From: a virus
Taxonomy: Duplodnaviria; Caudoviricetes
Direction: 5' to 3' (one strand)
DNA length: 60,309 bases
IMG/VR virus record: IMGVR_UViG_3300035670_000225
Coordinates: 1 to 60,309 of that record
The translations under genes and the position numbers were made by a program. The notes below the pieces were generated by a model that saw only the letters and a program-made list of their open reading frames with translations, ran no database searches and was not told where the DNA came from. Positions 5,766 through 54,440 of this stretch are shown piece by piece (position 1 is the first letter of the stretch; every line of letters starts with the position of its first letter).

Positions 5766-5919
5766 CACGCACATGACCCTTGACGATTTGCGCAAGTCAC
5801 TCAATAACTTTATGCCTGTATGGTTTGAGATCGAACGTTCCGACGACGGCGAGATCGTGATTCGCACCGGGCTGGTCGAAAACGCTGACGGCGAACTCGT
5901 ATCTATGGATGATGCGTAA
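5758..5919 (+). CDS. small hypothetical protein (53 aa, not in ORF track)
   Basis: MANTHMTLDDLRKSL...SMDDA; fills the gap and overlaps both neighbours. Confidence 0.6.
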   Translation: MANTHMTLDDLRKSLNNFMPVWFEIERSDDGEIVIRTGLVENADGELVSMDDA

Positions 5920-6398
5920 TGACTAAAGAACAAGAGCCGGCAGCATGGGCAGTGTGGTCGCGGCAAAGCGGGTGTTTGGCGGCATCCGTTCGCCGCGAAG
6001 ACGCAGTTGATATGCAATCTGAGTTTGAGGTCTATACCGACATTGTTCCGCTTTATTTATCGTCGCCACTTACCGACACGGAACGGGAGGCGATCCTGTT
6101 TTGCGTCAGTTGCGCGCAGGACTACCGCGATACGCTGGACGGTAGCGAGGAACGCGCCACGCAAATGATCGAAACAGCGATGCGGTTCGCCATGCCACCA
6201 GTCGGCCCTGCTCCCGTCGAAGGCCCTCGCACCGCGTCGGTCACTGATGTAGGCGGGGCGGGGCCGACGCTCGCCGACGAGGAGCGGGAGGCGATTGAAA
6301 TGGCGATCCGGCGAGAACGCGGCGAGTGGTACGGGAACCCAGATTACATGCGGGCTATTACGCTGCGGGGGCTGCTGGAGAGGACACGCAATGGCTGA
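5919..6398 (+). CDS. hypothetical protein with LTDxEREAI / TLRGLLERT modules
   Basis: Two EREAI motifs and one TLRGLLERT motif. Confidence 0.7.
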   Translation: MTKEQEPAAWAVWSRQSGCLAASVRREDAVDMQSEFEVYTDIVPLYLSSPLTDTEREAILFCVSCAQDYRDTLDGSEERATQMIETAMRFAMPPVGPAPVEGPRTASVTDVGGAGPTLADEEREAIEMAIRRERGEWYGNPDYMRAITLRGLLERTRNG

Positions 6399-8403: not shown

Positions 8404-9582
8404 GTGCAGCCATTGTTTGTGTTTACCGCTGATCTTCATTTAGAGGACGGCGCGTGGTCAACAAAACCCGGTATTTACGGCGACGCTTATTACAGTTTTG
8501 CCCAGATAATTGACTATTGCATCGCGCACCGGCTGCCGCTGATCCTTGGCGGCGACGTGTTGGAGCGCAAACAGAACCTCGCCCGCCCGATCGCGAAGTT
8601 GTGCGAGGGGTTATCGCGGATGCAAGCCGCGCAGTTGGACGTGTACTACATTCAGGGCAATCACGAGTACGACCGAAACGCCCCGTGGCTCAGCATCCAC
8701 CCGTGGCCGATTCACCTGCACAACATCAGCGCCGATTTTGGCGCCATTAGCATTAGCGTTCACGGACTTGACTGGCTCCCCCGCGGCGAGATTCAGACGG
8801 CATTCCAAGCCGTACCCGCGGATACAGATATCTTGGTGACCCATCAGGTCTGGAAAGACTTCATGGGTGAGATCGGCCGTACAGAATGCGAACTGACCGA
8901 CGTACATCACGTCCAGACAGTGCTGGCCGGCGACTTTCACGTGACGAAGATCGTGGAAAGCGTCAACGCGCAGGGTAAGCCTATCAAGATGCTGTCGCCC
9001 GGCTCGACGGCCATGCAGGACATGGGCGAGCAGCCGTCGAAGTTTTTCTTTGTAATCTCTGAGCACAATGGTGCGATTGTTTTTGATGCGGTACCGTTGA
9101 AGACGCGTGGCACGCTGAGTTACGTTGTTAAGGACGTTGAGTTGCTTGACGAGTTGTGCGCCGGCAAATTGACTCGAGAGATCGAGAAGTTAGTGGCGGA
9201 TAGCAAGTCCGCCGGCCACCACCCCGATATCCACAAGCCGCTTGTTCGAGTTAAATTTGACAAACGGCTTCCCGACGCTTTTCTGCGCATCACAACTGCA
9301 GTATCTGATTCTGCGCATTTGTTTTGCGAGGCGCTGACCGACAAGGTGGCTCAGCGGCAATCTCAAACCCGCGATTCGGTTAAGAATGATCTGTTGTCCG
9401 CGCTGTCCGATTTGATCGGCGACGGGAATGAGTCATACAAATTGGCTTCTGCTCTTTTGACGGCGGACGACCCCGGCAAAGAGTTGGAAGCGCAGTTCTC
9501 TAAGTTTATGAACGAGGAGCCCCATGCAACTTCTGAAACTGGAAGTGAGGAACTGGGTTCACCATCGGCAGCGGACGTGTGA
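8404..9582 (+). CDS. sbcD: Mre11/SbcD/gp47-like metallophosphoesterase nuclease
   Basis: DLH, GDV, GNHE, HQ and GDFH motifs; adjacent to an SMC ATPase. Confidence 0.9.
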   Translation: MQPLFVFTADLHLEDGAWSTKPGIYGDAYYSFAQIIDYCIAHRLPLILGGDVLERKQNLARPIAKLCEGLSRMQAAQLDVYYIQGNHEYDRNAPWLSIHPWPIHLHNISADFGAISISVHGLDWLPRGEIQTAFQAVPADTDILVTHQVWKDFMGEIGRTECELTDVHHVQTVLAGDFHVTKIVESVNAQGKPIKMLSPGSTAMQDMGEQPSKFFFVISEHNGAIVFDAVPLKTRGTLSYVVKDVELLDELCAGKLTREIEKLVADSKSAGHHPDIHKPLVRVKFDKRLPDAFLRITTAVSDSAHLFCEALTDKVAQRQSQTRDSVKNDLLSALSDLIGDGNESYKLASALLTADDPGKELEAQFSKFMNEEPHATSETGSEELGSPSAADV

Positions 9583-11680
9583 GTTTACACGCGGGTTAGT
9601 TGCCATTCTTGGTGAAAACGGTTCTGGCAAAAGCAGTCTTTTCGGGGCCATCCGTTGGCTCCTCACGGGCGAAAACCCCAACTTCGGCGTCAAGGCTGAC
9701 AACATCAGCCAGTACGCCAAGGAGGGCGAGCCAGCCTACGCGACCCTAGAGTTCGAGCACAACGGGCACATTGCCGTCGTGACTAGATATCTATTGCCGG
9801 AAAAAGAGCAGTCATTACTGGCTGTCGACGGCAAGGAGGTCGCACGCGGCGACAAGGCGGTAACGGCTGGGATCGAAAAACTGCTGGGCGTTGATGCCAA
9901 GTTCATCAGCCGGTTTATCATCGTCTCCCAGACCGAGATATTTTCATTTATTGACGACAATCAAACAGACACAGACAAATTTTTTCAGCGTCTATTCAAC
10001 ACGGCTAAAGCCGACAAGTGTCAAGATGTAATTGGCAAGGGGCTGCTGAAATTAAATGTGCCTGAAATCATCAAACCCAGTTCGCAAATAGCGGCGGAAC
10101 AAGCGGAGGTCGCCAAACAAATCGAGTACATGGACGAGCAGATTGAAAAACTGCCCTCACTCGACGCTTTTATCCAAGCACAAGACCGCGACCAGAAACT
10201 TATTCACCAATGGGAGGCGCGAAAAAAAGCAGGCATTGAACTGCAGCGTTTGACCCAGCAAGCAACTGAGTACGAAAAAGAAATAGAAGACGCAGAAGAG
10301 ACCTGCCGTCAGTACGAAAAAGATTTAGAGGCGTTCTCGGCGGCTATCAACGGCAAGGAAACGAACCACCGCGAAGCCAAGATCGCCCTAGGTCACTGGG
10401 AAAATTACAAAAACATTGCGAAGGTAAAAGCCAAGATTCAAGAGCAACGCACCGCCATTGCAGCGGAGCGCGTCCAGAATCCAGAACCGCCAATACCGCA
10501 AGGCCCGACTGCAGAAAATCTGCGAGGAAATGCCGAGGCTGTCAAACGTCAACTGAAAGACGCAGAGCGGTTCGTCGCCATGTTTACCGAAGACGGCGTG
10601 GCCGAGTGCCCGACCTGTCATACACCTTCGGCCCAGTTAGCGGCGCAGGTAACGGAGCAGCAAGACCAAATTCCTAAATTGGTTGAACTGCTGTCTGAAT
10701 TGCAAGTTGAAGCCGCAGAACGGGCTGCGGCAGAAAATGCGCGCGGCCAGTGGGAGTTGCTAAATGAAAAACTAAAGGCCCGCGAAAAGCATCTAGATGA
10801 ATCCGAGCGTGACTTGACGATTGTTAAGCCGCCGGAATCTACCGAAGAAGAACTTCAGCAGGCCGTATCAGATTACGAGGATTTTCAAGCGGCGCAAAAT
10901 GAACTTGCCCCGCTGATGCAAACCACGCGCGAGCACATCGCCAAACTCAATGGCGCGCTAGCCGCTGTCCGTGAACGTATTGGAAAACTGTCTGAAGATA
11001 TTAAAGCCATTACGACCACCGAAGCGGACGCCCATTTAGCCGGAGCGCGGCTGGAAGAATTGCGCAAACAATGTTCCGGCCGGCAAGTTTTGGAGCAGCA
11101 CAAAGTAGCGTTGTTGGCAGAAGACCGTCGACTACAAGAAATATACGACCTTACTTTGGCGCAAGAAACGGCGGCAGTGAAGTTGCGGCAGTGGGTCACG
11201 GTTGCCGAGCAGGCACGTGAGGCGCTGAAAAATGCGCCGCGAATTGTTGCGCAACGAAATTTGCAGCGGCTTGAGGCGGCTATTAATGAGTTATTGCAGG
11301 TGTTTAGTGTAAACTTTCAAGTAAAGGTCGCGAACGACGGCTCGCCAAACTTTGTTGCGGAGTTTTACGATGGTCGACGTCAACCCGCGCAGCGACTTTC
11401 AATCGGGCAAAAAACAGTCTTGGCTCTTGCGTTTCGAGTCGCCGTCAACGCCATGTTTGCCGAAGAGATCGGGTTATTGGCGCTGGACGAACCTACTGCG
11501 TCTTTGGATCAGCCGCGTATTCAAGCGCTAGCGCCGGTGCTTGAAAAGTTACGCGATCTTTCTACGGCAAAAGGGTTACAATGTTTGCTTGTGACCCACG
11601 CGTCAAGTTTGTCGCATTTATTTGAGTCAACAATCGAATTAGAGCCGCCGGAGTTACGCAATGTTCGCGCAGCAGGATGA
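9524..11680 (+). CDS. sbcC: Rad50/SbcC/gp46-like SMC ATPase
   Basis: Walker A GENGSGKS, coiled coil with CPTC zinc hook, signature LSIGQ, Walker B LDEPT, H-loop VTH. Confidence 0.93.
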   Translation: MQLLKLEVRNWVHHRQRTCEFTRGLVAILGENGSGKSSLFGAIRWLLTGENPNFGVKADNISQYAKEGEPAYATLEFEHNGHIAVVTRYLLPEKEQSLLAVDGKEVARGDKAVTAGIEKLLGVDAKFISRFIIVSQTEIFSFIDDNQTDTDKFFQRLFNTAKADKCQDVIGKGLLKLNVPEIIKPSSQIAAEQAEVAKQIEYMDEQIEKLPSLDAFIQAQDRDQKLIHQWEARKKAGIELQRLTQQATEYEKEIEDAEETCRQYEKDLEAFSAAINGKETNHREAKIALGHWENYKNIAKVKAKIQEQRTAIAAERVQNPEPPIPQGPTAENLRGNAEAVKRQLKDAERFVAMFTEDGVAECPTCHTPSAQLAAQVTEQQDQIPKLVELLSELQVEAAERAAAENARGQWELLNEKLKAREKHLDESERDLTIVKPPESTEEELQQAVSDYEDFQAAQNELAPLMQTTREHIAKLNGALAAVRERIGKLSEDIKAITTTEADAHLAGARLEELRKQCSGRQVLEQHKVALLAEDRRLQEIYDLTLAQETAAVKLRQWVTVAEQAREALKNAPRIVAQRNLQRLEAAINELLQVFSVNFQVKVANDGSPNFVAEFYDGRRQPAQRLSIGQKTVLALAFRVAVNAMFAEEIGLLALDEPTASLDQPRIQALAPVLEKLRDLSTAKGLQCLLVTHASSLSHLFESTIELEPPELRNVRAAG

Positions 11681-12602
11681 AACTGTAATTAAACTTCATA
11701 CTGCGGCTGACGGAAAAGTCTGGTATTCCCGCGGTATTAGCGCCGTAAAAAATTCTGAGCAAATTGTCGACAGTTTTTTGCTGTCGCCGGTTGTAGCGGG
11801 AATTGGGCTTACGTTCAGACTACTGGGCGTACAACAAAACGCCGAGTTGTTATGCGCGTTGTATTTACGGCGTTATAAAGGCGAGATTCGTTCTATCGAA
11901 ATTGCCGGCCCGAATATTCTGGACAGCCAGTACGAACTGAGCAGTCCGGAACTCGTCGTGCAACGTATGCGCACGGTTGCAATGTCGCCTGCCGCGGGCG
12001 GGTGGCATCAATTGACCATGCACGATTATCCGACGTACGCCATGTTAGCGCGAATGTTACGGACGAATTACGAATATGACGAAACTACACAGCATTATTT
12101 TCAAATGCACCCAGCGCACAAAGCCTTGACGTTTATCCCGACGCTCGCCGCTGCGTCCGCCGCCAAAATGCTTATCTACATTATTGACCCGCGTTGGTAT
12201 ATTGACCGCCGACGCCCTGAGCGGCTTAAAAAGTTGGAGTTGTTTCTTGGTTTAACGCCGGCGGTGCAAACAAAAGTTTCGAACAGCAAAAAATTACTGA
12301 TTAAGAATAGAGAATTTCGTTGCGCGGCAGTATTGCGCAGTTGGAAAACACAGCCCATTGAAAATGTCGATCTCGCCGATCCGGCAAATTTTTTATATCG
12401 TATCTACCAAGCCGCCGGCGGCGGCGCAAAAGGCGACTTGCGAGCGTCACAAGCGTTTATTCGGTATGTAAACGACAATTGGCTGGCTGGGCTAGAAAAC
12501 CGAAAAGGAATTCGTGACGGTTTATTTGCGCCGAACTTATTTTTCAAAACGCCGGCTGAAATCGAGACATACGAATATCACATGAAACCGCCAAAGAAAT
12601 AA
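11661..12602 (+). CDS. IS110-transposase/Nop-domain-like protein, apparently lacking the DEDD catalytic set
   Basis: HPAHKALTFIPTL...AAKMLIYIIDPRWY...KKLELFLGLTP follows the IS110 C-terminal pattern L.sIPGiG...aa.ll.eigd..RF...L..y.GL.P. Confidence 0.55.
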   Translation: MFAQQDETVIKLHTAADGKVWYSRGISAVKNSEQIVDSFLLSPVVAGIGLTFRLLGVQQNAELLCALYLRRYKGEIRSIEIAGPNILDSQYELSSPELVVQRMRTVAMSPAAGGWHQLTMHDYPTYAMLARMLRTNYEYDETTQHYFQMHPAHKALTFIPTLAAASAAKMLIYIIDPRWYIDRRRPERLKKLELFLGLTPAVQTKVSNSKKLLIKNREFRCAAVLRSWKTQPIENVDLADPANFLYRIYQAAGGGAKGDLRASQAFIRYVNDNWLAGLENRKGIRDGLFAPNLFFKTPAEIETYEYHMKPPKK

Positions 12603-12603
12603 A

Positions 12604-13101
12604 ATGCAAGAAGTCACGATTACCATTCGATTTAATCGGGTGTGCCTTGGCGCCGCAAAAAAGCGGCGTCACGGACAAGTGATTTTTTGTTTTGAACGTG
12701 ATCCCAGTCAGCGGGTTATGTTTATGTCTGCGGCGTGGTTGGCGTGTATGCGCCATGCAGCCAAGATTGCAAACCGACACCATTCTGAAGTGAAAAAAAT
12801 AGATTGGTGTCCGGTCATTGTGGGCGAGCCGCGAACAGATTGGCGTCGCACCATTCTGACCCCGAACCAGCAAAACGATGGTATGCGCAGCCACTACGCG
12901 CTGCATGAGGCGTTTCGCCCGGGAGATACGGTGGTCATTTCCGCTGTTCTGCCAGATGAGATATCATTGGCGGACTTCACGCACCTATTAACGCTGGTGG
13001 GGAAGTATCGCGGATTTTCGCCGTTTAACAACGCACAAGACAAATATGGGACATTTGAAATTATATCAATCGAACCAGTCGCAGGTCCGGGAAGCGACTA
13101 A
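12604..13101 (+). CDS. stand-alone minimal RAMP (Cas7/Csm3-like RRM fold)
   Basis: VTITIRFNRVCLG, RD..RVMF.SAAWLACMRHAA, HEAFRPGDTVVI, and a C-terminal G-loop LLTLVGKYRGFSPF.....YGTFEI. Confidence 0.6.
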   Translation: MQEVTITIRFNRVCLGAAKKRRHGQVIFCFERDPSQRVMFMSAAWLACMRHAAKIANRHHSEVKKIDWCPVIVGEPRTDWRRTILTPNQQNDGMRSHYALHEAFRPGDTVVISAVLPDEISLADFTHLLTLVGKYRGFSPFNNAQDKYGTFEIISIEPVAGPGSD

Positions 13102-13102
13102 C

Positions 13103-14638
13103 ATGAATTTTGCGGGTTATCCGGTCGTCATTAACCGCACTGGTAACGTGCTAAAAATTACGGGCGCCGGAGGCACCGCGCTTAACCCAGAACTAGCGAC
13201 GCGGCTGACAAAAGACCTGCGCTACGATCACGTTGAGCAATTGCACGGGCAGTCGCGCAAAAATCCAATCACCGGCCAGCGCATTTTTTTCCAAACGCGT
13301 GAGTACAAACTTTATCGAATTGAAAACGGGCACGTTATTTTATTGAGCGGCTACCTAGCCCGAATGGTGAGTCGGCTAAAGAAGTTGGGTTGCGCGCTGA
13401 CGCTTGTCGATTCTTCTCCGCAACGGAAGCGGCCTAACTGTTATGTTCCGCAGTGGGAAAACTTATCTGGCAAAATCGAATTTCGCGCGCGGCAGGAAGA
13501 ATGCTTGCAGTTAATTTCGCGCGTTCCGTGCGGCATTATTAAAGCCGTGACGGGCTTTGGTAAAACGACGCTGATTGGCGCCGCGTCGCAACTTTTCCCA
13601 GACGCAAGAATTGACGTAGTCACCAAGTCTGTTGACGTGGCTGAGCGTATTGTGCGCAGCCTTCGGCGGTTTGTACCCAAAGTGGGCATGATCGGCGATG
13701 GGTGGAAGCAGCGCGAACGGGTGACAGTGATTACTGCCGGCAGTCTGCAGCATGCGGACGGCGAAGCCGACTTCATGTTTGCCGACGAGGTCCACCAACT
13801 TGCCACAATAAATTTTTCGACCGCGCTGGCGGCTCGTTATCGGAATAGCCGCAATTTTGGCATGAGCGCGACTCCGTACGCCCGCATGGACAATGCGCAC
13901 GCAATTCTGGAGCCGCTGTTTGGCCCAATGATCTTCGACCTCCCGTACCAGCAGGCGGTCGAATTAGGGCTTGTAGTCCCGGTCAAAGTGCGCTGGCTGC
14001 CAATCCGCTTGACACACAACCCCGCCGAGCGGTACAAGCATCGCGTCGCTCGGAAGCGGCATGGCGTTTGGACTAATCATGCACGGAACAGCATTATCGC
14101 CGACGCCGTACGAGAATACCCCGATGACTACCAGATTCTTATTCTGGTGGAAACGATTGAGCACGCGGTGCATTTGGGTTCTTTGTTGCCTGAGTTTACG
14201 CTTATGTACTCTCAAATGGCGCCGTACGACTGCGCAGGCTATAAGCGCCTCAAACTGCTACCGCAAGACTACAAGCCGCTTACAGACGTACAAAAACACG
14301 ATATGCGATCGGCGTTTGAGCAGGGCTCGCTTAAACGCGTTATTGCAACAGACGTCTGGTCAACTGGCGTAGACTTTGAGCAGTTAAATGTTTTGGTGCG
14401 GGCAGATGACAGGGATAGTGACATCGTTGACGTACAGGGTCCGGGTCGCGTTAGCCGAACTTACACGTCGCCCGAAGGCGTAGTGAAAGAATTTGGCGAA
14501 GTTATTGATTGTATGGACACATTTGACCCAACGTTCTATCGCAAAAGCACGGGACGCCGCGATAGTTACAAATTGTTGGGGTGGGAGCAAAATTGGAATG
14601 AGGCTGCAAGGAGTTGGCGCACGAAGGAAAGCGGATGA
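13103..14638 (+). CDS. superfamily 2 DExH helicase (UvsW/Rad25-like)
   Basis: TGFGKT, DEVH, SATP, TGVD and QGPGRVSR motifs. Confidence 0.92.
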   Translation: MNFAGYPVVINRTGNVLKITGAGGTALNPELATRLTKDLRYDHVEQLHGQSRKNPITGQRIFFQTREYKLYRIENGHVILLSGYLARMVSRLKKLGCALTLVDSSPQRKRPNCYVPQWENLSGKIEFRARQEECLQLISRVPCGIIKAVTGFGKTTLIGAASQLFPDARIDVVTKSVDVAERIVRSLRRFVPKVGMIGDGWKQRERVTVITAGSLQHADGEADFMFADEVHQLATINFSTALAARYRNSRNFGMSATPYARMDNAHAILEPLFGPMIFDLPYQQAVELGLVVPVKVRWLPIRLTHNPAERYKHRVARKRHGVWTNHARNSIIADAVREYPDDYQILILVETIEHAVHLGSLLPEFTLMYSQMAPYDCAGYKRLKLLPQDYKPLTDVQKHDMRSAFEQGSLKRVIATDVWSTGVDFEQLNVLVRADDRDSDIVDVQGPGRVSRTYTSPEGVVKEFGEVIDCMDTFDPTFYRKSTGRRDSYKLLGWEQNWNEAARSWRTKESG

Positions 14639-15353
14639 TATCGACTATCTTGATCCCGAGTGGTATCGATCTTTAAACGATGTGCAACTAGCGGCCTATA
14701 TTCGCTATTTGTTCATCTATCATCGCGAAGGCGCGATTGATTGGGATTCGTCCGTACATCAGAAGCCTCGTCCGCACGTAGACGGCGGTCGCGACCAGTA
14801 CGGCAATAAACGCACCGCCCTATGGCCGAAAGTAATTTCGGCAATTAAGCGGCGGGACGCAGTACCCGGAATATGGGTGGCAGCGCATTTTTCTGGGGCG
14901 CTGCATTCAGCGCGCGTAAGCAGCGGTAAAAACGTTATCGGCAGTAAACCAGAAGTCTTGGCCAGCGATATTTCTGAGCGCGTTTACGATGATTACATCG
15001 GATATTTTCCGTCGCTTATTAATCAGCAGCGCAAATCTGCTGAAGTGTCAATAACTACGCGCTACACAATTACTTCGTCGCTTGATTTGCCAGAAGACGA
15101 TCATGTATTGTTGGTGCTCTGCGATAAATCGCACGTAAACGCAACTCCGTTTTTACGGTACGCCTTTGCCGCCAGCCTCGACTGTCAGCGCGCAGCGAAC
15201 AAGTTTATTTGGCCTGCGGCAATCGAATACGAGACAAAACAGGCGCTTTATGACAAATACATTGAAGACAACCCAGAGTGTGATTGGTTTGTCTCACCCG
15301 CACTAAAAAAGTTTGTAGTAGATGTACGGAAGCACTGGAGCCGATATGCCTAA
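14598..15353 (+). CDS. hypothetical replication-module protein
   Basis: ORF between the two helicases, overlapping both; start uncertain. Confidence 0.7.
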   Translation: MRLQGVGARRKADDIDYLDPEWYRSLNDVQLAAYIRYLFIYHREGAIDWDSSVHQKPRPHVDGGRDQYGNKRTALWPKVISAIKRRDAVPGIWVAAHFSGALHSARVSSGKNVIGSKPEVLASDISERVYDDYIGYFPSLINQQRKSAEVSITTRYTITSSLDLPEDDHVLLVLCDKSHVNATPFLRYAFAASLDCQRAANKFIWPAAIEYETKQALYDKYIEDNPECDWFVSPALKKFVVDVRKHWSRYA

Positions 15354-17043
15354 TTATGGAAGATTTAGTGAAGGCCCCGTAGACGATATTGAACTCACAT
15401 TCGCCGAACTAAGGGCGATGGTCCGCGGGCTGGTACGGTTTCCAAGCATTCTTAAGTCTGCGGTTCGCGCCGGCTTTGCGCCGTCTCTGTTTACGGACGT
15501 CGCAGAGCAGGGTTTAGGGGTGTTCTTGACAATTTATTTGCAGTTGCACGATCGCCACGAAACGGTCACGAAAGACATGTTTCTTGCCGAAATTGAAGCA
15601 ATGTCGCAACTGCACGCGATTGCTATGGGTCGCGCGGAGGCCGACTTTTTGTTTGGCTCCCAAGATGGCGAAGACGGCTTTATTGATTTTGCGTTTGCTC
15701 CGCCGGCGCGTGATTTAGCCCCCGCTGAAATTCGGTCGGAGCGCGATTATTTTTCAAATATTTTGCGGCGGTTTTTAAATGCGCGATCGCTCAAACAACA
15801 ACTGAAACAACTTATAGCGCAAAGCAGCGATAATACTTCGCCGCTAGAGTTTCAGCGGTTGTTGGACGATTTCAACAAAAAAGCGCAAGTTATCAAATTT
15901 CTAGGCAACGAAGCCGTCAACTCGGCGCCAATGCCCGATATCGGCAGCCCGATCATTTTGCCGCCGCAGTTCGAGCCGACGACTATTGCGTGGATCGATA
16001 ACTTTATCGACGGTTTTCGCGAAGGCGACATCATTGGTTTGTTGGGCCCGTATGCTGGCGGCAAAACAACAATGCTCAGCACAATCGCTGTGCGGCTGGC
16101 CCAGCAATACGCGGCGAACAATCAAAATAAATTGGCTGTGTACATTTGCTACGAAGACGGCGCGCAAAAGTTGAACTACACATTTTATTCTGCTGCGGCC
16201 CACATTGAGCGAGCAGCGTTTATCAACAAAACTCCAGACGAAGTTTGGGCGGGCTTGTCGACGCGGGAAAATTTGAAAGCCTACGAGCGCACAATACCTG
16301 TTAACGCAAACGCTGAAATTTTGCTTTGCGAGCGCGACCGATGGGCGGCTGTACAGAGTTGGTACAACAGTCACTTTGTGTTTTTAGACTTCTCCAAAAA
16401 TCCCGAGACTGGCGGTCGCGGAAGCGGCGGCGTACACGAAATCGTGTCCGCACTTGAAAATCTTATTGCGCAAACCGGTATGCAGATCGGGTTGGTGTGC
16501 ATTGACTACGCTAGTTTGCTACTGAACCGCGAAATGGCGCAAAACACCAATACGAAGTATCAAGAGCAGATTTGGCGGCAGTTGCAGCAGTTGCCAGACG
16601 AACTAAAAACGCTTGTGGCGATCCCGTTTCGCTGCACTGTGTTTCTGGCGCATCAGTTGGCCGGCAGCGACATCAAGAATATCCCGCCGTATCGGCATGT
16701 CACGCATTTTGACGCTCAAGGTTCGAAGGCCTTCGCAGAAAATCTTCACGCGTGCGTGTGTTTGAACAAGCCCGATCCCGAGTCACGAGTATCTACGATT
16801 AATTGGTCTAAGGTTCGTTTTTCTCGCCCGGCGAGCCCGTACGGTTTAGTCAGAATTGACGAAAACGTCGTTGATGTGCGATCCGTCGATGACGAGTATT
16901 ACGTGAACGATCTCGCCAAAAAGATTATGCGGCGCGACGAGGCCGCTCCGACCGCGCATAACAATACCGTCGTGAGCCCGAGCGAGTCGACGCGCCGTCG
17001 CGTAATGCCAAACATTGATACGTTCGGAAGCGACATGTTGTAG
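15346..17043 (+). CDS. DnaB-like (SF4) replicative helicase
   Basis: GPYAGGKT, CYED, CIDYA and HQL motifs; next to the primase. Confidence 0.8.
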   Translation: MPNYGRFSEGPVDDIELTFAELRAMVRGLVRFPSILKSAVRAGFAPSLFTDVAEQGLGVFLTIYLQLHDRHETVTKDMFLAEIEAMSQLHAIAMGRAEADFLFGSQDGEDGFIDFAFAPPARDLAPAEIRSERDYFSNILRRFLNARSLKQQLKQLIAQSSDNTSPLEFQRLLDDFNKKAQVIKFLGNEAVNSAPMPDIGSPIILPPQFEPTTIAWIDNFIDGFREGDIIGLLGPYAGGKTTMLSTIAVRLAQQYAANNQNKLAVYICYEDGAQKLNYTFYSAAAHIERAAFINKTPDEVWAGLSTRENLKAYERTIPVNANAEILLCERDRWAAVQSWYNSHFVFLDFSKNPETGGRGSGGVHEIVSALENLIAQTGMQIGLVCIDYASLLLNREMAQNTNTKYQEQIWRQLQQLPDELKTLVAIPFRCTVFLAHQLAGSDIKNIPPYRHVTHFDAQGSKAFAENLHACVCLNKPDPESRVSTINWSKVRFSRPASPYGLVRIDENVVDVRSVDDEYYVNDLAKKIMRRDEAAPTAHNNTVVSPSESTRRRVMPNIDTFGSDML

Positions 17044-17051
17044 GAGTTTTT

Positions 17052-18131
17052 ATGACGATGACAAAATCGTCAGTGCCTAGAGTTAATCCGTTAAATCCAA
17101 CGCTATATGCGCTACTGGAGCACAAGTTTGGAGAAGTCAAAATTGCTAACGCCGGTTCTGCGGCTAATATTCAACGGTTTCCAGACCCGTTGCGACCGGG
17201 GCGAATAATCACGCAGGCCCATTGGTGGGGCGAGTATTATTGCGTCAACTGCCCGTTTTGTAATGACGTCGGAAATCGGTTGTGGATCAACCACCTGTAC
17301 GGCGCCGATTACAACCCGCGAACCGGCCGCCGCACCGATACGTTTTTAGCGCACTGCTACAAAAATGATTGCGTCGCAGCAGAGGGGCGCTCCGCGCAAC
17401 TAGAAGATATGATTTTTGGCCCCGGCAAGTGGGCTAACAGAAAATTAGCGATCCGCACGGGCGACATGTCGCAGGCTACGGAAACGATTGACGCCCCCGG
17501 CGATATTATCTCCCTGCGCGATCTGCCCGATAATCATCCGGCCGTCGAGTATCTTTCCGCGCGCGGATTTGATATCAATGAACTTTCTGATGTGTTTAAC
17601 GTTGGTGTGTGCGCAAAAGCCCCGACACGTTATCGCATTATGAACGGTCGCATTTACATTCCGTCGTTTTTCAACGGCCAGTTAGTTGCGTGGCAGGGCC
17701 GGCTTGCGCGAAACACAACGAGTAAGCAAGAGATCAAATATTACACGCAAGGCCGCAAAAGTCGCGCCCTGTACAACTACGACACGGCGCGCAATGAGTC
17801 TGCGGTTGTGCTAGTCGAAGGCGCGCCCAGCGTCTGGCGAATTGGGCGGGCTGGGGTATCTATCTTCGGTAAGACGTTGTCGTATTGGCAGGAAAACACG
17901 GTGGCAACGACGTGGGCTGGAAAACCTGTTTTCGTTGTGCTAGATTGCGACGCCCAAAAGGAGTTGGAGCACGTGGTCACGCAACTGTGCCAGCACAATT
18001 TACACGTTGTTCCTGTCGTGTTGCCGGATGAACGTGATCCCGCTGACTATTCTCGCGGCGATCTTCGCGACATTCTTTCCGCCGCCGCCTCTGCGGTTGG
18101 CGTTTCGGCGAATCTGTCTTTCTTAGAGTGA
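17052..18131 (+). CDS. DnaG-type primase
   Basis: Zinc finger CPFC...HCYKNDC, WQGR, KY, Toprim VEG and LDCD, and DPAD motifs. Confidence 0.88.
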   Translation: MTMTKSSVPRVNPLNPTLYALLEHKFGEVKIANAGSAANIQRFPDPLRPGRIITQAHWWGEYYCVNCPFCNDVGNRLWINHLYGADYNPRTGRRTDTFLAHCYKNDCVAAEGRSAQLEDMIFGPGKWANRKLAIRTGDMSQATETIDAPGDIISLRDLPDNHPAVEYLSARGFDINELSDVFNVGVCAKAPTRYRIMNGRIYIPSFFNGQLVAWQGRLARNTTSKQEIKYYTQGRKSRALYNYDTARNESAVVLVEGAPSVWRIGRAGVSIFGKTLSYWQENTVATTWAGKPVFVVLDCDAQKELEHVVTQLCQHNLHVVPVVLPDERDPADYSRGDLRDILSAAASAVGVSANLSFLE

Positions 18132-18134
18132 GTT

Positions 18135-21100
18135 ATGTCGTCTGCTGTATCTTTAAACCACAGGCACGCAAGCGCGTTATATGATGATTCTGGCGCGGAA
18201 TTGACGGCTGAACTGTTTCCAATGGTGGCTTTAGATTCCATTGGAATGCCGCCCGCCGGCGCCGATTTTATTGCACACGCTGTCGCGCTCGGGGATGATC
18301 CGGCAGTCGTGAACATCAAGAACAAGAAAAAACTGCCGGTCGGAGAAAAGTTGGTCCATTTGTATCGGGCCGCTCTTTACGACCCCAATTTCTCTATGCC
18401 GATTACGTTGAAAAGCGGAATCGAAGTTGTTCAGTTTTTGCCGGGCCATCTTTTGAAATACGGCACGGGCGACGACCCGGTCTACGGGCCGAAGCCGGCG
18501 CGTGTCATGATTGTCAGTAAAATTCCCGGGATCAACGAACTCAATGATCGCAGCGCTATTACGGGCCCGGTCATGGAGCCGATGTTTAAGGCCCTGCGTC
18601 AATGCGGCTTCAACCCGCGCGACTACCGCGAGTGGTACATTACGCACGCGTGCAAATTCGGCTCCCCGACGCCTGACACGCCCGCCGTACCTGCGGCTTG
18701 GATTAAAAATTGCGCCGTATTGTTGGCGCAAGAAATCCGGCTCACCAAGCCCGATTTTATTTTGTGTCTTGGGAATGAGGCGACCAAAGCCGTACTGAAT
18801 ACGACGGCGAGTGTCTCCGAATTGTCCGGCCGCGCGACTACGCTGCAAACCTATGACGCCGAAGGCAACGCCCGCGATATCAAAGTAATGTCGATTATGC
18901 ATCCCGGCTACGTCATGCGAAAGCCAGAGATGTACGAGGATTTTTGTGGGCAACTTTCTCGTTTTAAGGATTTAATCGAGAACCGCGAAACGGTGGTCGA
19001 AGAGGTCGATCACGCAGATATTTACACGGAGGAGACGCTGCGTGAAACCGTCGACGCCATGCTGGCCGACCCAGACCCAAATGCCAATATCATCGCAGTC
19101 GACTGCGAGTGGCACGGCGACTATCCTACAGAAGACGGCGCGTATTTGCGCACGATTCAGATATCTAATAAAGATAAGTGGGCGCGCACTATCGTTTTGC
19201 GGCATCAAGGCGGCGCGGAAGCGTTTAAGCCAAACTTGGCCGCAGCCCGCGCGCAATTGCAGCGGCTGCTCAAAAGTACGCCGGAAAGAGCCGTTCGAGT
19301 TGGGGGGCATTTCTTCCGTGCTGACCTGCCATGGCTTATTGATTTTGGCGTGGATTTGCGCCCGGAGTATGCTCCCGCCCCCGATCCCGAAGACCGTTCC
19401 CGCGGAGGTTGGGATACCAGCCTCATGTACCACGCCGTTAATGAGTGCGCCAAGTATGGTCTCGACGTTTGCTCCATGCGTTTCACGTCAGCCCCTACTT
19501 ACTGGGACGAACTTAACGAGTGGCGAAAGCGTTATCGCGCAGAAAAAAAATTAAAAGCCAGTGATATGGCCGGCTATGGCGATTGCCCCGCGCACATTTT
19601 GCACCCATACGGCAACTACGACGCCGATGTGACACGACGCATTATGATGCACTTTTACGGAACTAACGGCGAAGATGGCGCAATAGCCAAAGACCAGCAC
19701 GGACACGACTGCTGGTTACCGTATTGGACTGCACATCAAGCGTCCCTGTCATTTTTGGAAATGGAAATGACCGGCCTACTCGTCGACCGTACGCGGGCCG
19801 ATGAGTTGACGACTTTATTTATGAACACGCAGGATCGGTTGTTGGTAGAAATTCGGCAAGAACTTAACTGGCCAGATTTCAACCCTAAAAGTCAACCGCA
19901 ATTGTCGGTCGCCCTGTTCGGCGCGCAGTTTTCGAATCGATATACAAATCCGCCTAATGTTCCGGAAGACGCGCAACTTTTGAACTTACGGCCTGTGAAA
20001 ACTACAGGCAAACGCCCGGTGCTATGGAATGAAATGAGTTGGAGGGGCGTAAACCCCGACACCGCCACGCCTAGCACAGACAAAGAAAGCCTTGGTATTC
20101 TCGGGCACATTAACGCAACTGCGGCTAAAATTCGCGACTACAAGTTCATCAGCCAAGTGTTGCAGTCGGTATTGCGTAAACCCTCCACCACGGAAGACGG
20201 AGATTACGAGGTCGATGAAAACGGTAATTACTCGTATGAAAAAGGTTTGGTCGGCTGTGTCCACGCCGACGGTAAGGTCCGTACTCACTTTTTTCAAACC
20301 AAGGAAACGGGCCGCGCCTCCTCATCTCGACCACCTTTGCAAAATCTCAGTTCGCGGCGAGAAAACGACTACGCACGAATTCTTGGAAACCAATACCAGC
20401 ATCCAGTTCGATCGATATTGCGCGTCCCGCCCGGTTACGTCGGGATCGAAACGGACCTCACTGGTGCGGAATTGGCGGTCCTCGCGTGGTTAAGCCAAGA
20501 CGCCGATATGATTGAACATGTGCGACGGAACATATTGCCAGAAAACCATCCAGACCACTACGACATTCATAGCCAGCAGGCAGTGAAAACTTTTAACATC
20601 ACTGACTGCCCGCCAACAAAAGAAGGTCTGAAAAAAGCAGGCAAAAAGGGTTTGCGCGTCGCCGCCAAGAACGTCAACTTTGGCATTCCTTATGGTCGCG
20701 GCGCCGAGGCGCTGGCGCGGCAATGCAAAGAAGAGGGGGAAGACGTTACGGCCGACGAGTGCCAAGCGATGATCGAGGCTTATTTTGCGTCATATCCTCG
20801 CACGCGCACATTTCTAGCCGAATGTCGCGCTCGCTCTCAAGACCCCGGCTGGATTATCGGCCCCTACGGGCGGATGCGGCGTTTTGTGCCGTCTAAGGAC
20901 CGGGCGATCCGCGGCGAGCAAGAGCGGCAAGCGCAGAACTTTCCGATTCAAGGCGGTGTGGCTGATGCTGTGTCTATTGCGCTGTCAAACTTTTATCAGT
21001 ACCGCGAAACGCATCCAGAGATTGATTACAAAATTGCGCTGCAGATTCATGACGCTATTGTGTTGCTCGTGCCGATTGAGCACGCTGAACAAGTGTACAA

Positions 21101-21293
21101 AGAGGTGGTGCCTAAATGCATGGTGGATGACGTTCCCTTTTATCCGCGGAAATTAGACGGGTCTATGATCTCCGCGGGTCCGTATCGATTTGGTTCTTCT
21201 CGCGAAGTGTTTGTTCACTGGGGCGAAACCCTGAACGCAGAGGACGCCCACGCGCTTGGATTGCGATGGTTGGCCGAGGAATTGGGGGCTTGA
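18135..21293 (+). CDS. polA: family A DNA polymerase with N-terminal UDG-like domain and 3'-5' exonuclease
   Basis: UDG-like KPDFILCLG and MHPGY; exo DCE and YDA; TGRASSSRPPLQN; motif A DLTGAEL, motif B KNVNFGIPYG, motif C QIHD. Confidence 0.93.
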   Translation: MSSAVSLNHRHASALYDDSGAELTAELFPMVALDSIGMPPAGADFIAHAVALGDDPAVVNIKNKKKLPVGEKLVHLYRAALYDPNFSMPITLKSGIEVVQFLPGHLLKYGTGDDPVYGPKPARVMIVSKIPGINELNDRSAITGPVMEPMFKALRQCGFNPRDYREWYITHACKFGSPTPDTPAVPAAWIKNCAVLLAQEIRLTKPDFILCLGNEATKAVLNTTASVSELSGRATTLQTYDAEGNARDIKVMSIMHPGYVMRKPEMYEDFCGQLSRFKDLIENRETVVEEVDHADIYTEETLRETVDAMLADPDPNANIIAVDCEWHGDYPTEDGAYLRTIQISNKDKWARTIVLRHQGGAEAFKPNLAAARAQLQRLLKSTPERAVRVGGHFFRADLPWLIDFGVDLRPEYAPAPDPEDRSRGGWDTSLMYHAVNECAKYGLDVCSMRFTSAPTYWDELNEWRKRYRAEKKLKASDMAGYGDCPAHILHPYGNYDADVTRRIMMHFYGTNGEDGAIAKDQHGHDCWLPYWTAHQASLSFLEMEMTGLLVDRTRADELTTLFMNTQDRLLVEIRQELNWPDFNPKSQPQLSVALFGAQFSNRYTNPPNVPEDAQLLNLRPVKTTGKRPVLWNEMSWRGVNPDTATPSTDKESLGILGHINATAAKIRDYKFISQVLQSVLRKPSTTEDGDYEVDENGNYSYEKGLVGCVHADGKVRTHFFQTKETGRASSSRPPLQNLSSRRENDYARILGNQYQHPVRSILRVPPGYVGIETDLTGAELAVLAWLSQDADMIEHVRRNILPENHPDHYDIHSQQAVKTFNITDCPPTKEGLKKAGKKGLRVAAKNVNFGIPYGRGAEALARQCKEEGEDVTADECQAMIEAYFASYPRTRTFLAECRARSQDPGWIIGPYGRMRRFVPSKDRAIRGEQERQAQNFPIQGGVADAVSIALSNFYQYRETHPEIDYKIALQIHDAIVLLVPIEHAEQVYKEVVPKCMVDDVPFYPRKLDGSMISAGPYRFGSSREVFVHWGETLNAEDAHALGLRWLAEELGA

Positions 21294-21317
21294 TTCTTCC
21301 TCGTGGTCTGCTAGACT
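21290..21317 (+). promoter_or_regulatory. sigma70-like promoter with extended -10
   Basis: TTGATT-16 nt-TAGACT with TGn immediately before the -10. Confidence 0.5.
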
Positions 21318-21367
21318 GGCGGTAACCACGCGGGAGCCTCAACAGCATCCCGTACTTTATTAACAAC

Positions 21368-21386
21368 GCTGGGTACGATACCCAGC
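21368..21386 (+). promoter_or_regulatory. leader hairpin upstream of the SSB-like gene
   Basis: Perfect 8-bp stem GCTGGGTA-cga-TACCCAGC. Confidence 0.5.
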
Positions 21387-21408
21387 ACAACAAAGAAAGA
21401 GGCTTAAA

Positions 21409-22776
21409 ATGCCACGGTATGATTCTGAAAATCTTGCTGCCATCGACCCCGAGTTCCGTCGGCAGCACAATCTGGATAACGGCCCCCGCAAGAACAGCCC
21501 GTATACATACGGCAAAAACGTTCTGATTGCGGCTGGCAACGAACTCATGGCCAACGGCTTGTGCTTGCGGCTGATGCCCATGTACGAAGAGGGCGCCGGC
21601 CAGCGCCAATTTGTCAATTTCCGCGAGGGTGCGGACGACGTCGCCATCGGCGACTGGTGCCGGTTGCGGACCGTGGCGCACTGGGTTGGTAATCCCGGCG
21701 TGTGCATGATCCTGACTGACGGTTCGCCGGAAATGGACTTGCGTGAGAATCCGTACAACCTGTTGTACAACGTCGCGTGGAAGAACAAGGAAACTCCGGG
21801 TATCGGCCGGCTTTACAGCGAACTGCTTCAGAAGCCGAAGGTCATGAAGTCGCACATCGGCTCGCTGACCAAACCCGAGAAGATTCTGTTTGTGTCGGCT
21901 AGCATCGTCGGCACTGATGATCGCGGGCAGATTGTGCTGAGCCAGTTCCTCGACGACCCGAAGAAGAACGCGCGCGTAATCGGCCTTAAGTTCAGCGCCC
22001 TTCAATCGCTGTTCTCGATTCTTAAGGTCCGCGATCCCGATACCAACGAGTACTTGACCGGCGACATGCTGTCGTTTGGTCCGGCTAAATTGCTCACTAT
22101 CCTGCCCGAGGCTTACCAGAGCAAAGAGCAGAAGGTGATGGGCATCGGCGCCGACGGCCCTGAGACGTTCTTCTGCCCGAAGTACGCCCGCGGCCCGAAG
22201 GACTCGCAGTACATCGTTGGCTACCCGCCGCCGGATCGCCGCAGCGCCTTCACCCACTTCGCGATTGTTCATGACTCCTACAACGGTCAGCAGATTTCGT
22301 TGGAAGATCACGCCGACCGCATCGCCGAAGAGGCGCAGTCGTGGGATCAGATGCTGAACGTACTGTCGTACGAAGAGCAGGCGGAAAAGTTGGCGGGCGC
22401 GTTTCCGCGCGAGGCGCTTGAGTTTGCGTGGCGTGAGTATCCGCAGTACTTGCGTACGCTGGGTCGTGGTTCGTCTTCTCCCGCTCCGAGTTCGTCGGCG
22501 TCTGAGTTTATTGACGACGAGAACGACGAGGCCGTGCAGGCGTTCCAGCAGCGACCCGCGGCGAAGAGCGCCCCGGCGCCGAAGCCGGCCCCCAAGGACC
22601 CTCCGGCGCCTTGGGACCCCGTAGACGCCGAGGTCAGCCCGGAAGACGCCGAGGCTGTAGCGGGTCTGTTTGACGCGGCAACCGCCCCGGCAGCAGAAGA
22701 GCCCGCGACTGAGAAGTTGAAGCCGGCGGACATCCTTGCGCGTGCGCGTGCTAAGGCTGCCAAGTTGAAGAAGTAG
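21409..22776 (+). CDS. probable single-stranded DNA-binding/recombination protein
   Basis: Lies between polA and recA; own promoter and terminator; C/G-ending codon bias; acidic, Pro/Ala-rich tail. Function inferred from context. Confidence 0.45.
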   Translation: MPRYDSENLAAIDPEFRRQHNLDNGPRKNSPYTYGKNVLIAAGNELMANGLCLRLMPMYEEGAGQRQFVNFREGADDVAIGDWCRLRTVAHWVGNPGVCMILTDGSPEMDLRENPYNLLYNVAWKNKETPGIGRLYSELLQKPKVMKSHIGSLTKPEKILFVSASIVGTDDRGQIVLSQFLDDPKKNARVIGLKFSALQSLFSILKVRDPDTNEYLTGDMLSFGPAKLLTILPEAYQSKEQKVMGIGADGPETFFCPKYARGPKDSQYIVGYPPPDRRSAFTHFAIVHDSYNGQQISLEDHADRIAEEAQSWDQMLNVLSYEEQAEKLAGAFPREALEFAWREYPQYLRTLGRGSSSPAPSSSASEFIDDENDEAVQAFQQRPAAKSAPAPKPAPKDPPAPWDPVDAEVSPEDAEAVAGLFDAATAPAAEEPATEKLKPADILARARAKAAKLKK

Positions 22777-22783
22777 TCTTTTC

Positions 22784-22847
22784 GCCGCCGCAATGTCGCG
22801 GGTGTCCCGGGATTTTGCCCCGGCATTGCGGCGGTTATTTTATTTTT
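22784..22847 (+). terminator. rho-independent terminator
   Basis: GCCGCCGCAATGTCG/CGGCATTGCGGCGGT stem followed by TATTTTATTTTT. Confidence 0.7.
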
Positions 22848-22871
22848 ACACGCACAAAGGGCAGATTGTTT

Positions 22872-24248
22872 ATGGGCCGCAAGAAAAAGAACGAAGATAA
22901 TGATATCAGTGTGTTCGACGTTAACGGCGAACACCCCGTTATTACGGAAGTGCTAAAAGCCGCCGCCGAGGACAATGACCCGCTAATTGGCATACCCCTG
23001 CCAACCTTGGCGGCGCGTTACCTGCTTCAGGCGAATATTTTTCCGCTGTCGCGATTCACGCAATTGCGCGGCGAATTTAGCGCGGGTAAATCAGCGTTGT
23101 TGCTGGAGATTATGCGGTGGTTTCACGTCTACGGCGGCGGCGCCATCCTGATCGACACCGAGAACAAGGGTAGTCCGACTATGTTGGCGGGCATGCTGGG
23201 GCATAACCCGCAGCACATCGCCCGCACGAAGGTCACGACGGCCGCCAGCGTAGAAGAGTGGCAGAGCAAGTACATGGGTTTTTGCAAGGCCATCCACGCG
23301 CAGATCGACGCGGCAAACGCTCCTGACCGTGTCATCCCAATTTGTATTGGCGTCGATTCTATCTCGGCCGTCGAGGTAGATAGGCGTGTGGAAAAGGTTG
23401 CCGACGAAGGCCACGCGGCTGCCGGCCATCCTTATCTGGCTCGTAACCTTTCAGACTTTATGCGGACAGCGCTAGTGCCCACGTTGCGGCACTATCCGAT
23501 TGCTTTGATCGCTACGAATCACCTCAAGGAGGAGATTAATAGCATGGGTTTTGGTCCGCCCAAAAAGTACGCCCCGGGCGGCGCCAGCCTCGACTATTAC
23601 CCGACCTTAATCATCGACATGCAGAAAGCGGCACGAAACAACATTGTTTCCGGCCGCGCCGAAGGTCAGGCCGTACGGCTTATGGCTACCAAGAATAATT
23701 TGGGCGCTCCCGGCCGTAAGTTGGTCGTAAACCTAATGTGGTACAACGACATCGTTTCAGCAAAGGACGCTGAAGGAAATGAAAATTACCGAAACCAGCA
23801 GTATCACTACTGGGACTGGCATACGGCGTCTATTCGCCTGCTTATGGATTTGCAGGCGGCAGACAAAAAGCCCGCACCCGGAATCGACCCGAAGTTGCCG
23901 GCGCTCGTCAAACAGGTGTGCGACTTTGAGTACAAGCACGGCACCAAGAACGCCGAAACGCCGCTTGTTTATTCAACGGCTCTCGGCATCACGAAGCAGA
24001 ACGCGATCTCCGAGGTGGAGGCGTCAATGGCGCTCGAAGAGAATAAAAAGGTGCTCGGCGTTTTGCACGGGTTGCTCGGAGTCAACGAATACACTATTTG
24101 TGACCCGGCTAAAAAGTATCGCGAGCAAGTTATGGCCGAGTTGAAGCAGCAGCAGATGACCGACGTGCCTGAACTTATGGCTGCCGCCAGCATGTCAGGG
24201 GCCAGCATTATTCCAGAAGATTTTGATCCGCTAGGACAAGTAGATTGA
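22872..24248 (+). CDS. recA: RecA/UvsX-like recombinase
   Basis: GEFSAGKS, IDTE, Walker B GVDS, TNH, PGG and KN motifs. Confidence 0.85.
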   Translation: MGRKKKNEDNDISVFDVNGEHPVITEVLKAAAEDNDPLIGIPLPTLAARYLLQANIFPLSRFTQLRGEFSAGKSALLLEIMRWFHVYGGGAILIDTENKGSPTMLAGMLGHNPQHIARTKVTTAASVEEWQSKYMGFCKAIHAQIDAANAPDRVIPICIGVDSISAVEVDRRVEKVADEGHAAAGHPYLARNLSDFMRTALVPTLRHYPIALIATNHLKEEINSMGFGPPKKYAPGGASLDYYPTLIIDMQKAARNNIVSGRAEGQAVRLMATKNNLGAPGRKLVVNLMWYNDIVSAKDAEGNENYRNQQYHYWDWHTASIRLLMDLQAADKKPAPGIDPKLPALVKQVCDFEYKHGTKNAETPLVYSTALGITKQNAISEVEASMALEENKKVLGVLHGLLGVNEYTICDPAKKYREQVMAELKQQQMTDVPELMAAASMSGASIIPEDFDPLGQVD

Positions 24249-28726: not shown

Positions 28727-29142
28727 ACGTCGTCACGTCACGCATCGACTTGAAAACAACGCGCGCAAACTGGCCTCGCGACATGGCTTTTGCGCCGGCT
28801 TTAGTCAAGGCAAAACAACCCGGCCAGCCCGAAGACTGGTACGCAATTGACGCGAAACTAGAACTAGATCAACCCCCGAGTTTTGCAGATACCCGCCACG
28901 ATCAGTATTTGCGCGTGCCGTTATTTGAATACGTTTTAAGCCCAGAAGCCGATCTTGCTTTTGCGCATGTTGTGCAACTTGTTTTAAGTTGTGCAGGGTA
29001 TATTGGTCGCCCCATAAAAACGCTGCACATAGTGACAGGAAACCCAGTTGACCTAATCTACGCTGACAGTATAAATACAGCATCAGGCCTACGGTATTGG
29101 TTTGGTATAGCCTTTTCTTTGGAGAGACAACAAAATGTCTGA
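28723..29142 (+). CDS. hypothetical protein
   Basis: ATGA overlap. Confidence 0.7.
   Translation: MNVVTSRIDLKTTRANWPRDMAFAPALVKAKQPGQPEDWYAIDAKLELDQPPSFADTRHDQYLRVPLFEYVLSPEADLAFAHVVQLVLSCAGYIGRPIKTLHIVTGNPVDLIYADSINTASGLRYWFGIAFSLERQQNV

Positions 29143-52427: not shown

Positions 52428-54440
<2,013 letters not shown>

Follow-up and report, generated by a model that had tools for sequence, protein, structure and literature searches.

A predicted TasR-like Nop protein and a predicted solo RAMP, both without a detectable guide array, in the replication operon of large uncultured phages

We find that a 313-aa Nop protein and a 165-aa RAMP are conserved genes of one phage clade, a large family of uncultured phages of ~200 kb whose DNA-replication cluster includes both. 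The window, meaning the whole 60,309-nucleotide stretch of Caudoviricetes DNA analyzed here (IMG/VR record IMGVR_UViG_3300035670_000225), carries the two genes side by side. Our preferred reading, in which we place about even confidence, is that they are array-less, separately recruited descendants of guide-RNA-binding folds that act as accessories of recombination-dependent replication. In phages, RAMP and Nop folds have so far been described as guide-holders in conflict (VIPR, TIGR-Tas) or as serving transposition; their presence as conserved replication-operon genes, even guide-less, points to housekeeping use and bears on the origins of CRISPR RAMPs and of Tas, IS110, and snoRNP proteins.

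All genes of the locus lie on the plus strand. The Nop gene (11661..12602) is preceded by genes for an Mre11/SbcD-like metallophosphoesterase (8404..9582; Pfam Metallophos E 7e-7, PHROG SbcD-like E 0.005) and a Rad50/SbcC-like ATPase (9524..11680; PHROG 77, E 3e-38), the latter overlapping the Nop gene start by 20 nt. A 1-nt gap separates the Nop gene from the RAMP gene (12604..13101), which adjoins or overlaps the gene of an SF2 helicase with ResIII/Helicase_C domain matches (13046..14638, with an alternative start at 13103). The downstream replication block (14493..24248) holds an ORF of unknown function, DnaB, primase, UDG-PolA, an SSB-like gene whose assignment is weak (PHROG E 0.027), and RecA/UvsX, an order shared by related loci. 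ORF coordinates and Pfam/PHROG matches reproduce the gene order of the preliminary description, from Mre11 and Rad50 through the 313-aa and 165-aa proteins and the SF2 helicase to an unknown gene, DnaB, primase, PolA, SSB, and RecA. Its claim that insertion-sequence ends or an array cannot fit here also holds: the genes abut on both sides, and no non-coding array was found in the window. The arrangement extends to related phages: Rad50 lies upstream in 73 of 74 Nop loci with flanks, and the SF2 helicase follows in 74/74. The synteny is thus conserved, and the replication or recombination role proposed earlier is likely. Of 120 loci in a GTDB scan, three were true matches, in three unrelated MAGs.

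The AF2 model of the Nop protein, built from a deep alignment, has a pLDDT of 96 and places a RuvC/RNase H-like domain at about residues 1-118 and a Nop-like domain at about 150-308. The region between them, a coiled coil in TasR, is shortened in the model to two short helices (123-134 and 141-149), and the median distance from the RuvC end to the Nop core is 32 residues (116 of 146 sequences). In VIA comparisons, the whole model matches TasR (PDB 9MTY) at Z 10.8 (rmsd 5.4, 232 aa, 9% identity), residues 123-308 match TasH (21kl) at Z 8.5 (rmsd 3.1 over 136 aa), and IS110 recombinases match at Z 8.1-8.6, with IS621 at 8.6. The top Foldseek matches are IS110 bridge recombinases, whose E of 0.03 misses the 0.001 threshold; weak PF02371 matches occur in 4/105 and 3/146 homologs (best E 0.03). 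The predicted structure is thus in line with the IS110/Nop-like fold first suggested for this protein. Its RuvC-like domain lacks conserved catalytic acids: Asp or Glu occurs in at most 4% of 146 sequences in strands 9-14 and 51-56, positions placed from the strand pattern rather than by residue-level superposition. Basic residues are conserved, both in this domain (K/R11, 87%; R53, 92%) and in the Nop domain (R178, R220, R247, and R261), as are D/E122 (98%), H116, and H150. The GxG helix-hairpin motif of Tas seed sequences is not retained in the column frequencies of the homologs. The family comprises 847 clusters at 50% identity, and we found no homologs among cultured phages.

The AF2 model of the RAMP (deep alignment, pLDDT 91) shows a single RRM with a thumb hairpin at residues 77-104 and a variant G-loop, an architecture resembling a minimal Csm3/Cas7. 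Foldseek reaches type III Csm subunits at E 2.4e-6, with 94 matches at E<=0.001, and VIA gives Z 12.1; these modeled comparisons agree with the Cas7-like RAMP fold that had been claimed. The thumb arginines and the G-loop are retained among the conserved residues, which are K/R19 (92%), R32, R81, R82 (92%), G16, G137, and G149. Across 85 dereplicated homologs the glycines G133, G137, and G149 are retained; the search pattern itself contained G133 and G137, yet both are also invariant in the HMM-derived alignment. The predicted surface is basic and of RNA-binding type (median pI 9.5). Pfam and PHROG gave no match for either the Nop protein or the RAMP, a PDB sequence search with both returned nothing useful, an ESM Atlas search returned only unnamed viral clusters, and our literature searches turned up no publication describing this RAMP family.

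Whether the two genes form one module can be judged from their distribution. The preliminary description had proposed a ribonucleoprotein module, under which the genes should co-occur in relatives. Co-occurrence is seen in part: both genes are present in 81 of 104 non-redundant loci and are mostly adjacent or nearly so, whereas 14 have only the Nop gene and 9 only the RAMP. On a tree of 74 SF2 sequences, the RAMP is absent in seven separate places and the Nop gene in five. RAMP absence was confirmed in 5/5 whole records tested, three of them at least 90% complete (control 5/5). The Nop gene went undetected in 5/5 RAMP-bearing records, of which just one (G012) is complete; it cannot fit in loci L376, L407, and L427, whereas L465 and L500, counted as Nop-less, appear by eye to hide very diverged copies, so that some Nop-less loci may still hold the gene. 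A single obligate module is not borne out, as the genes are lost independently and the RAMP has a sense promoter-like site of its own in 15/21 relatives with a gap before it, compared with 0/21 on the other strand. An NrdR-like box was set aside after matching in just 4/21 loci. Because each gene is lost without the other and no guide array was found, the two look like replication helpers that were borrowed independently, and not like a single new RNA-guided system.

The RNA guiding proposed earlier found no support in a whole-genome check for short periodic arrays, which gave no guide RNA in eight near-complete relatives. Repeats in the window are collagen-like and other coding repeats only; Rfam finds two tRNAs and one DUF3800-VIII RNA there, and neither the window nor the operon contains a CRISPR array or other cas genes. 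Periodicity and box C/D pattern scans of the window and the eight relatives detected no TIGR-like array, although a stem-loop array that lies at a distance from the gene and whose boxes have diverged could escape such scans. A two-unit TIGR pattern matched 0-3 times per genome, as in shuffled sequences, except in G002, which has 13 matches, those listed falling within its period-9 repeat region. The scans revealed no non-tRNA ncRNA shared among the eight relatives, and they would overlook a single, diverged, non-repetitive guide. CRISPR-like arrays are present in the genome G003, from which the RAMP is absent. A guide RNA inside the Nop gene was rejected, as its synonymous sites vary freely (homozygosity 0.36, 35 sequences).

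The junction between RAMP and helicase has features of its own. A helicase start at 13046, which would give the gene an overlap with the last 56 nt of the RAMP gene, is probable: an open in-frame ATG at this upstream position is kept in 24/24 close relatives, four of which have no other ATG ahead of the aligned helicase start. A synonymous-site signal at the RAMP 3' end is accounted for by the helicase start that overlaps there. In 30/46 relatives with a gap before the helicase, we observed an antisense small-RNA-like unit of 65-105 nt; in some loci a coupled leader peptide appears beneath it, which we do not claim as a feature. The unit occurs in 23 loci with both genes, 6 with Nop only, and 1 with RAMP only; it is sequence-diverse, the window's clade has no room for one, and in the two genomes that allowed a check no clear second match to the unit was seen in the same genome.

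Beyond what the predicted folds, synteny, gene coupling, independent loss, and lack of a detectable array demonstrate, we infer partners, substrates, and a mechanism for the separately recruited accessories. The Nop protein would be a TasR-like protein that is catalytically dead, lacks the dimerizing coiled coil, and is translationally coupled to Rad50. Its most likely place of action is DNA ends or branched DNA, together with Mre11-Rad50, and its conserved basic residues would stand in for the RuvC acids. The RAMP, expressed together with the SF2 helicase, would bind single-stranded nucleic acid, most likely coating or handing over the displaced strand or RNA of helicase-remodeled D-loops and R-loops. 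Neither protein would need a programmable guide. Counting against the array-less reading, the kept basic residues make a specific RNA ligand for the RAMP or the Nop protein quite possible, and we weigh the conserved D/E122, H116, and H150 on the same side, together with the close spacing of the two genes in most loci.

We considered several other explanations. The RAMP might be an RNA-binding regulator of the helicase-to-polymerase block, for which T4 RegA and ColE1 Rop are models, acting on the helicase leader or the antisense RNA. Its RRM core and basic surface, its own promoter-like site, its overlap with the helicase start, and the antisense unit at the same junction would suit such a role; however, the unit also occurs in six loci without the RAMP, and a conservation among close relatives like that of the helicase (0.83 versus 0.84) suits an enzyme partner equally, leaving this regulator quite improbable. 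Viral Cas mimics are known, and the RAMP could be a Cas7/Vipr mimic that poisons host CRISPR or a rival VIPR, while a dead TasR represses competing elements. This we regard as very doubtful: VIPR and CRISPR arrays are patchy in these phages, a vipr-like gene lies directly upstream of the RAMP in L402, and dead TasRs are RNA-guided repressors according to the preprint by Xu et al. (bioRxiv 10.64898/2026.09.09.750476, September 2026), but both genes hold a fixed place in a core replication operon and evolve slowly across very diverse phages, there is no array, and the RAMP is present in 4/6 genomes without VIPR.

It is also rather unlikely, in our estimation, that one or both proteins still hold a specific guide RNA outside any array, be it encoded elsewhere or supplied as the helicase-leader antisense RNA, and with it open an R-loop, e.g., at an origin or recombination hot spot, which the helicase extends or removes. 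In favor of this, the closest solved matches of both predicted folds are guide-binding scaffolds, basic residues are conserved in both proteins, the antisense unit is a candidate, and Xu et al. allow another guide source for the array-less branch. Against it stand the distribution, diversity, and lack of a clear second match of that unit and its exclusion from the window's clade, as well as the absence of the long coiled coil of TasR and the failure to find a shared ncRNA. We judge it unlikely that the mini-RAMP, perhaps together with the dead TasR, forms a ribonucleoprotein with a single dedicated small RNA to open an R-loop, which SF2 and DnaB/primase would then convert into a replication origin or recombination start. 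If true, this would mean that replication initiation is RNA-guided and that RAMP and Nop folds have a housekeeping role outside immunity, one that may be ancestral.

Comparison with known systems places the array-less accessories among several relatives. The 313-aa protein shares the predicted RuvC-like plus Nop architecture of TasR and, like dead TasRs, lacks the RuvC catalytic acidic tetrad; unlike TasR, it has no TIGR array or GxG motif, appears to lack the long coiled coil that dimerizes TasR on its guide, and is fixed behind Rad50. Xu et al. report a "divergent tas clade" of compact TasRs that come from tightly packed viral genomes and lack both coiled coil and array; they leave an alternative guide source open for it. 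This branch and the 313-aa protein are probably the same family, and our loci supply gene context for that open question. The seed alignment of Faure et al. (PMC12045711, Data S1) includes A0A3M1VGY1, which by eye carries the Nop-protein motifs. IS110 recombinases (IS621, ISCro4) provide the top Foldseek matches and the weak PF02371 matches, whereas the 313-aa gene is a single copy in a fixed operon without DEDD residues, a PF01548 match, IS ends, or space for a bridge RNA; an IS110 insertion was rejected, as PF01548 has no match in the genome and the genes abut on both sides.

VIPR (bioRxiv 10.64898/2026.04.26.720920) likewise involves a phage-encoded RAMP that has one RRM, a thumb, and a G-loop and stands apart from CRISPR, but our RAMP is without flanking GGY/NN vrRNA, long intergenic space, or vap, and its G-loop (G-h-S-P-aromatic) has neither the acid nor the arginine with which Vipr reads GGY. 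Its profile does not retrieve the two Viprs, and alignment with one Vipr, that of G006, is insignificant (hhalign probability 1.4%, E 0.037). Period-5 GG around the window's RAMP gene reaches at best 5/10, compared with 9/10 in the G006 array, and a vrRNA-like tract lies near the RAMP in 1 of 195 loci scanned, coming after a distinct vipr-like gene. Within these phages, canonical VIPR has a locus of its own and is patchy: 2/8 relatives have it, irrespective of the RAMP, and vrRNA arrays are confined to the vicinity of its vipr gene; vrRNAs acting in trans as a general RAMP guide were rejected, one of these two genomes having no RAMP. Type III/VII Cas7 proteins (Csm3, Cmr) are the RAMP's best structural matches (E 2e-6, Z 10-12, TM about 0.6), although the RAMP is smaller, shares 10-14% identity with them, and has neither other cas genes nor a CRISPR array in its neighborhood. 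T4-type recombination-dependent replication employs gp46/47, UvsW, UvsX, and RegA. The present locus resembles it in uniting Mre11-Rad50, an SF2 helicase, a recombinase, and an SSB-like gene in one block, and differs in that its accessory slots are occupied by Nop and RAMP folds.

The 60-kb window belongs to a virus record with 29% completeness, and relatives reach up to about 235 kb. Its open reading frames (ORFs) and domain matches agree with the gene order of the preliminary description: Mre11, Rad50, the 313-amino-acid (aa) Nop protein, the 165-aa RAMP, the SF2 helicase, an unknown gene, DnaB, primase, UDG-PolA, an SSB-like gene, and RecA. The presence of the Nop (11661-12602, plus strand) and RAMP (12604-13101, plus strand) genes in this replication operon is a real and unusual feature; neither protein has a Pfam or PHROG match. 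The helicase gene is coupled to the RAMP gene, its start probably lying at 13046, within the latter, where 24/24 close relatives have an open, in-frame ATG, which in four is the sole usable one. The helicase match is ~1 kb longer than usual in five related loci (L016, L019, L021, L024, and L035), which suggests an intein or intron. Farther downstream, the family A polymerase (18135-21293) carries an N-terminal uracil-DNA glycosylase-like domain.

Structural modeling bore out both folds guessed from the sequence. For the 313-aa protein, with 847 clusters at 50% identity in a profile search, a model built from 146 sequences (pLDDT 96) has an IS110/TasR-like Nop fold. Its top ten Foldseek matches were IS621 or TasR only, at E values of 0.03 to 0.1 and none under 0.001. 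A wide structural search returned TasR at Z 10.8 (rmsd 5.4, 232 aa), TasH at Z 8.5 over residues 123-308, IS621 and ISCro4 at Z 8.1-8.6, and unrelated RNase H folds at Z 7.4 and below. Strands 9-14 and 51-56 of the N-terminal domain lack a conserved acid and carry K/R11 (87%) and R53 (92%) instead; this predicted strand pattern points to a dead nuclease. The two domains are linked by two short helices only (median 32 residues in 116/146 sequences), and the Nop part keeps arginines R178, R220, R247, and R261. For the 165-aa protein, a model built from 84 sequences (pLDDT 91) gave 94 Foldseek matches at E≤0.001 (best, 2.4e-6), those listed being all class 1 CRISPR subunits, and Z 12.1 in the wide search; three proteins of viral origin reached the same E-value threshold. 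Its 85 dereplicated homologs have a median pI of 9.5 and conserve G16, K/R19, R32, the thumb R81-R82, and the G-loop glycines. Homologs also occur among accessory genes away from any helicase (L360:4934-5407, L492, and L505).

A pattern search of viral contigs gave 100 matches, 93 of them true Nop genes. Synteny across relatives proved conserved: among 74 Nop loci with flanks, Rad50 was present in 73, SF2 in 74, and RAMP in 57. The expected co-occurrence of the two genes held in part, as 81 of 104 non-redundant loci had both, 14 Nop only, and 9 RAMP only. This set comprises loci found via either gene, with Rad50 and a full helicase start, so that loci with neither gene escape it. RAMP was missing from all five whole records tested (control, 5/5), and the Nop gene went undetected in five of five RAMP-bearing records, one of them complete. 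Absences of RAMP map to seven places, and those of Nop to five, in a midpoint-rooted FastTree built from 74 helicases. The profile missed very diverged Nop-like genes, seen by eye, in two further loci, which makes some of the absences among basal loci uncertain. A sense promoter-like site precedes RAMP in 15/21 loci with a gap before this gene (opposite strand, 0/21). Based on this site and the loss pattern, the Nop gene tracks Rad50, whereas RAMP tracks the helicase. The Rad50/RAMP junction is a frequent site of insertions, and one locus has a TnpB-like gene (by eye) there (L449:842-1906).

The preliminary description placed any guide RNA elsewhere in the genome. Repeats in the window are coding, with no non-coding array: collagen-like repeats lie at 48300-48800 and 52600-54200, and 57-nt tandem repeats, two of whose copies are identical, at 54490-54802. 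None of three Rfam matches relates to Nop or RAMP; one is DUF3800-VIII RNA (6202-6267, 56 bits) within ORF 5919-6398. Eight near-complete relatives were scanned for periodicity and for a two-unit box C/D pattern, and their intergenic regions were compared by blastn; this yielded tRNAs, tmRNA, VIPR tracts (two genomes), and CRISPR-like arrays (one), but nothing common to the set. The CRISPR-like arrays (13597-13862, 28851-29138, and 30035-30610; period 61-62) are in G003, which has no RAMP. Canonical-looking VIPR loci, each with its own vipr-like gene, an accessory gene, and GGY/NN tracts, adjoin tmRNA/tRNA genes in G006, which has RAMP (L149:4930-7028, ~5-7 kb past the region matching the window's end), and in G002, which lacks it (L156:100-1800). 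In a complete 169-kb phage with no detectable Nop gene, a vipr-like gene and one short GGY/NN tract lie directly upstream of RAMP (L402:5420-6090).

Just upstream of the helicase, 30 of the 46 loci where this gap measures 90 nt or more carry a predicted antisense unit (sense strand, 1/46; shuffles, 0/230) consisting of a sigma70-like promoter, a hairpin-containing stretch of 65-105 nt, and an intrinsic terminator (e.g., L122:5174-5503, L062:7164-7336, L092:4727-4852, and L052:7070-7203, among others). In some loci a leader ORF stops where the helicase starts. Because the antisense unit co-occurs with Nop, RAMP, or both and the window's clade leaves no space for it, we take it for a putative cis-acting regulator of the helicase block rather than the guide.

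Given independent loss, and no TIGR-like array or shared RNA in the scans of eight relatives, a single RNA-guided Nop-RAMP system is unsupported as stated and keeps a low probability. We favor, at roughly even confidence, two accessories of recombination-dependent replication that lack arrays and were domesticated separately. With partners and substrates that we infer, the dead TasR-like protein would act with Mre11-Rad50, while D-loops or R-loops would be where RAMP works with the helicase. A specific non-arrayed guide seems unlikely: no element was common across the eight relatives in scans blind to a single diverged RNA, and synonymous sites of the Nop gene are unconstrained. A translational regulator is less probable again. 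Least probable is a conflict factor, with both genes kept beside replication genes in most loci.

Related families have been described. A0A3M1VGY1, in the accessible part of Data S1 of Faure et al. (PMC12045711), is by eye a member of the Nop family; DPRW, GGWH, NFLYR, and FLWR had no matches in a portion of their Table S1. In the accessible text, Xu et al. (10.64898/2026.09.09.750476) describe compact TasRs, from densely packed viral genomes, that have neither coiled coil nor array; these are likely this family. Their main text does not mention "replication" or "helicase." The VIPR discovery preprint (10.64898/2026.04.26.720920) gives types III-V nuclease or helicase partners in its accessible text; its main text mentions neither "Nop" nor "replication," and its supplements could include related loci. 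Passages of two October 2026 preprints contained nothing on this family, and literature searches that cover few subscription journals listed no paper on a RAMP in a phage replication operon.

RAMP differs in its G-loop from the RAMP of VIPR: in the accessible text on Vipr, an acid and an arginine of the G-loop read GGY (10.64898/2026.04.26.720927), whereas our alignment shows neither in RAMP. Its profile match to the Vipr of a close relative was insignificant. The GxG motif visible in Tas seed sequences is not kept in the Nop protein. The antisense unit resembles plasmid antisense copy-number control. For the proteins, parallels exist in T4 recombination-dependent replication, in T4 RegA and ColE1 Rop as RNA-binding regulators, and in viral Cas mimics as conflict factors; an NrdR-like box was matched in 4 of 21 loci.
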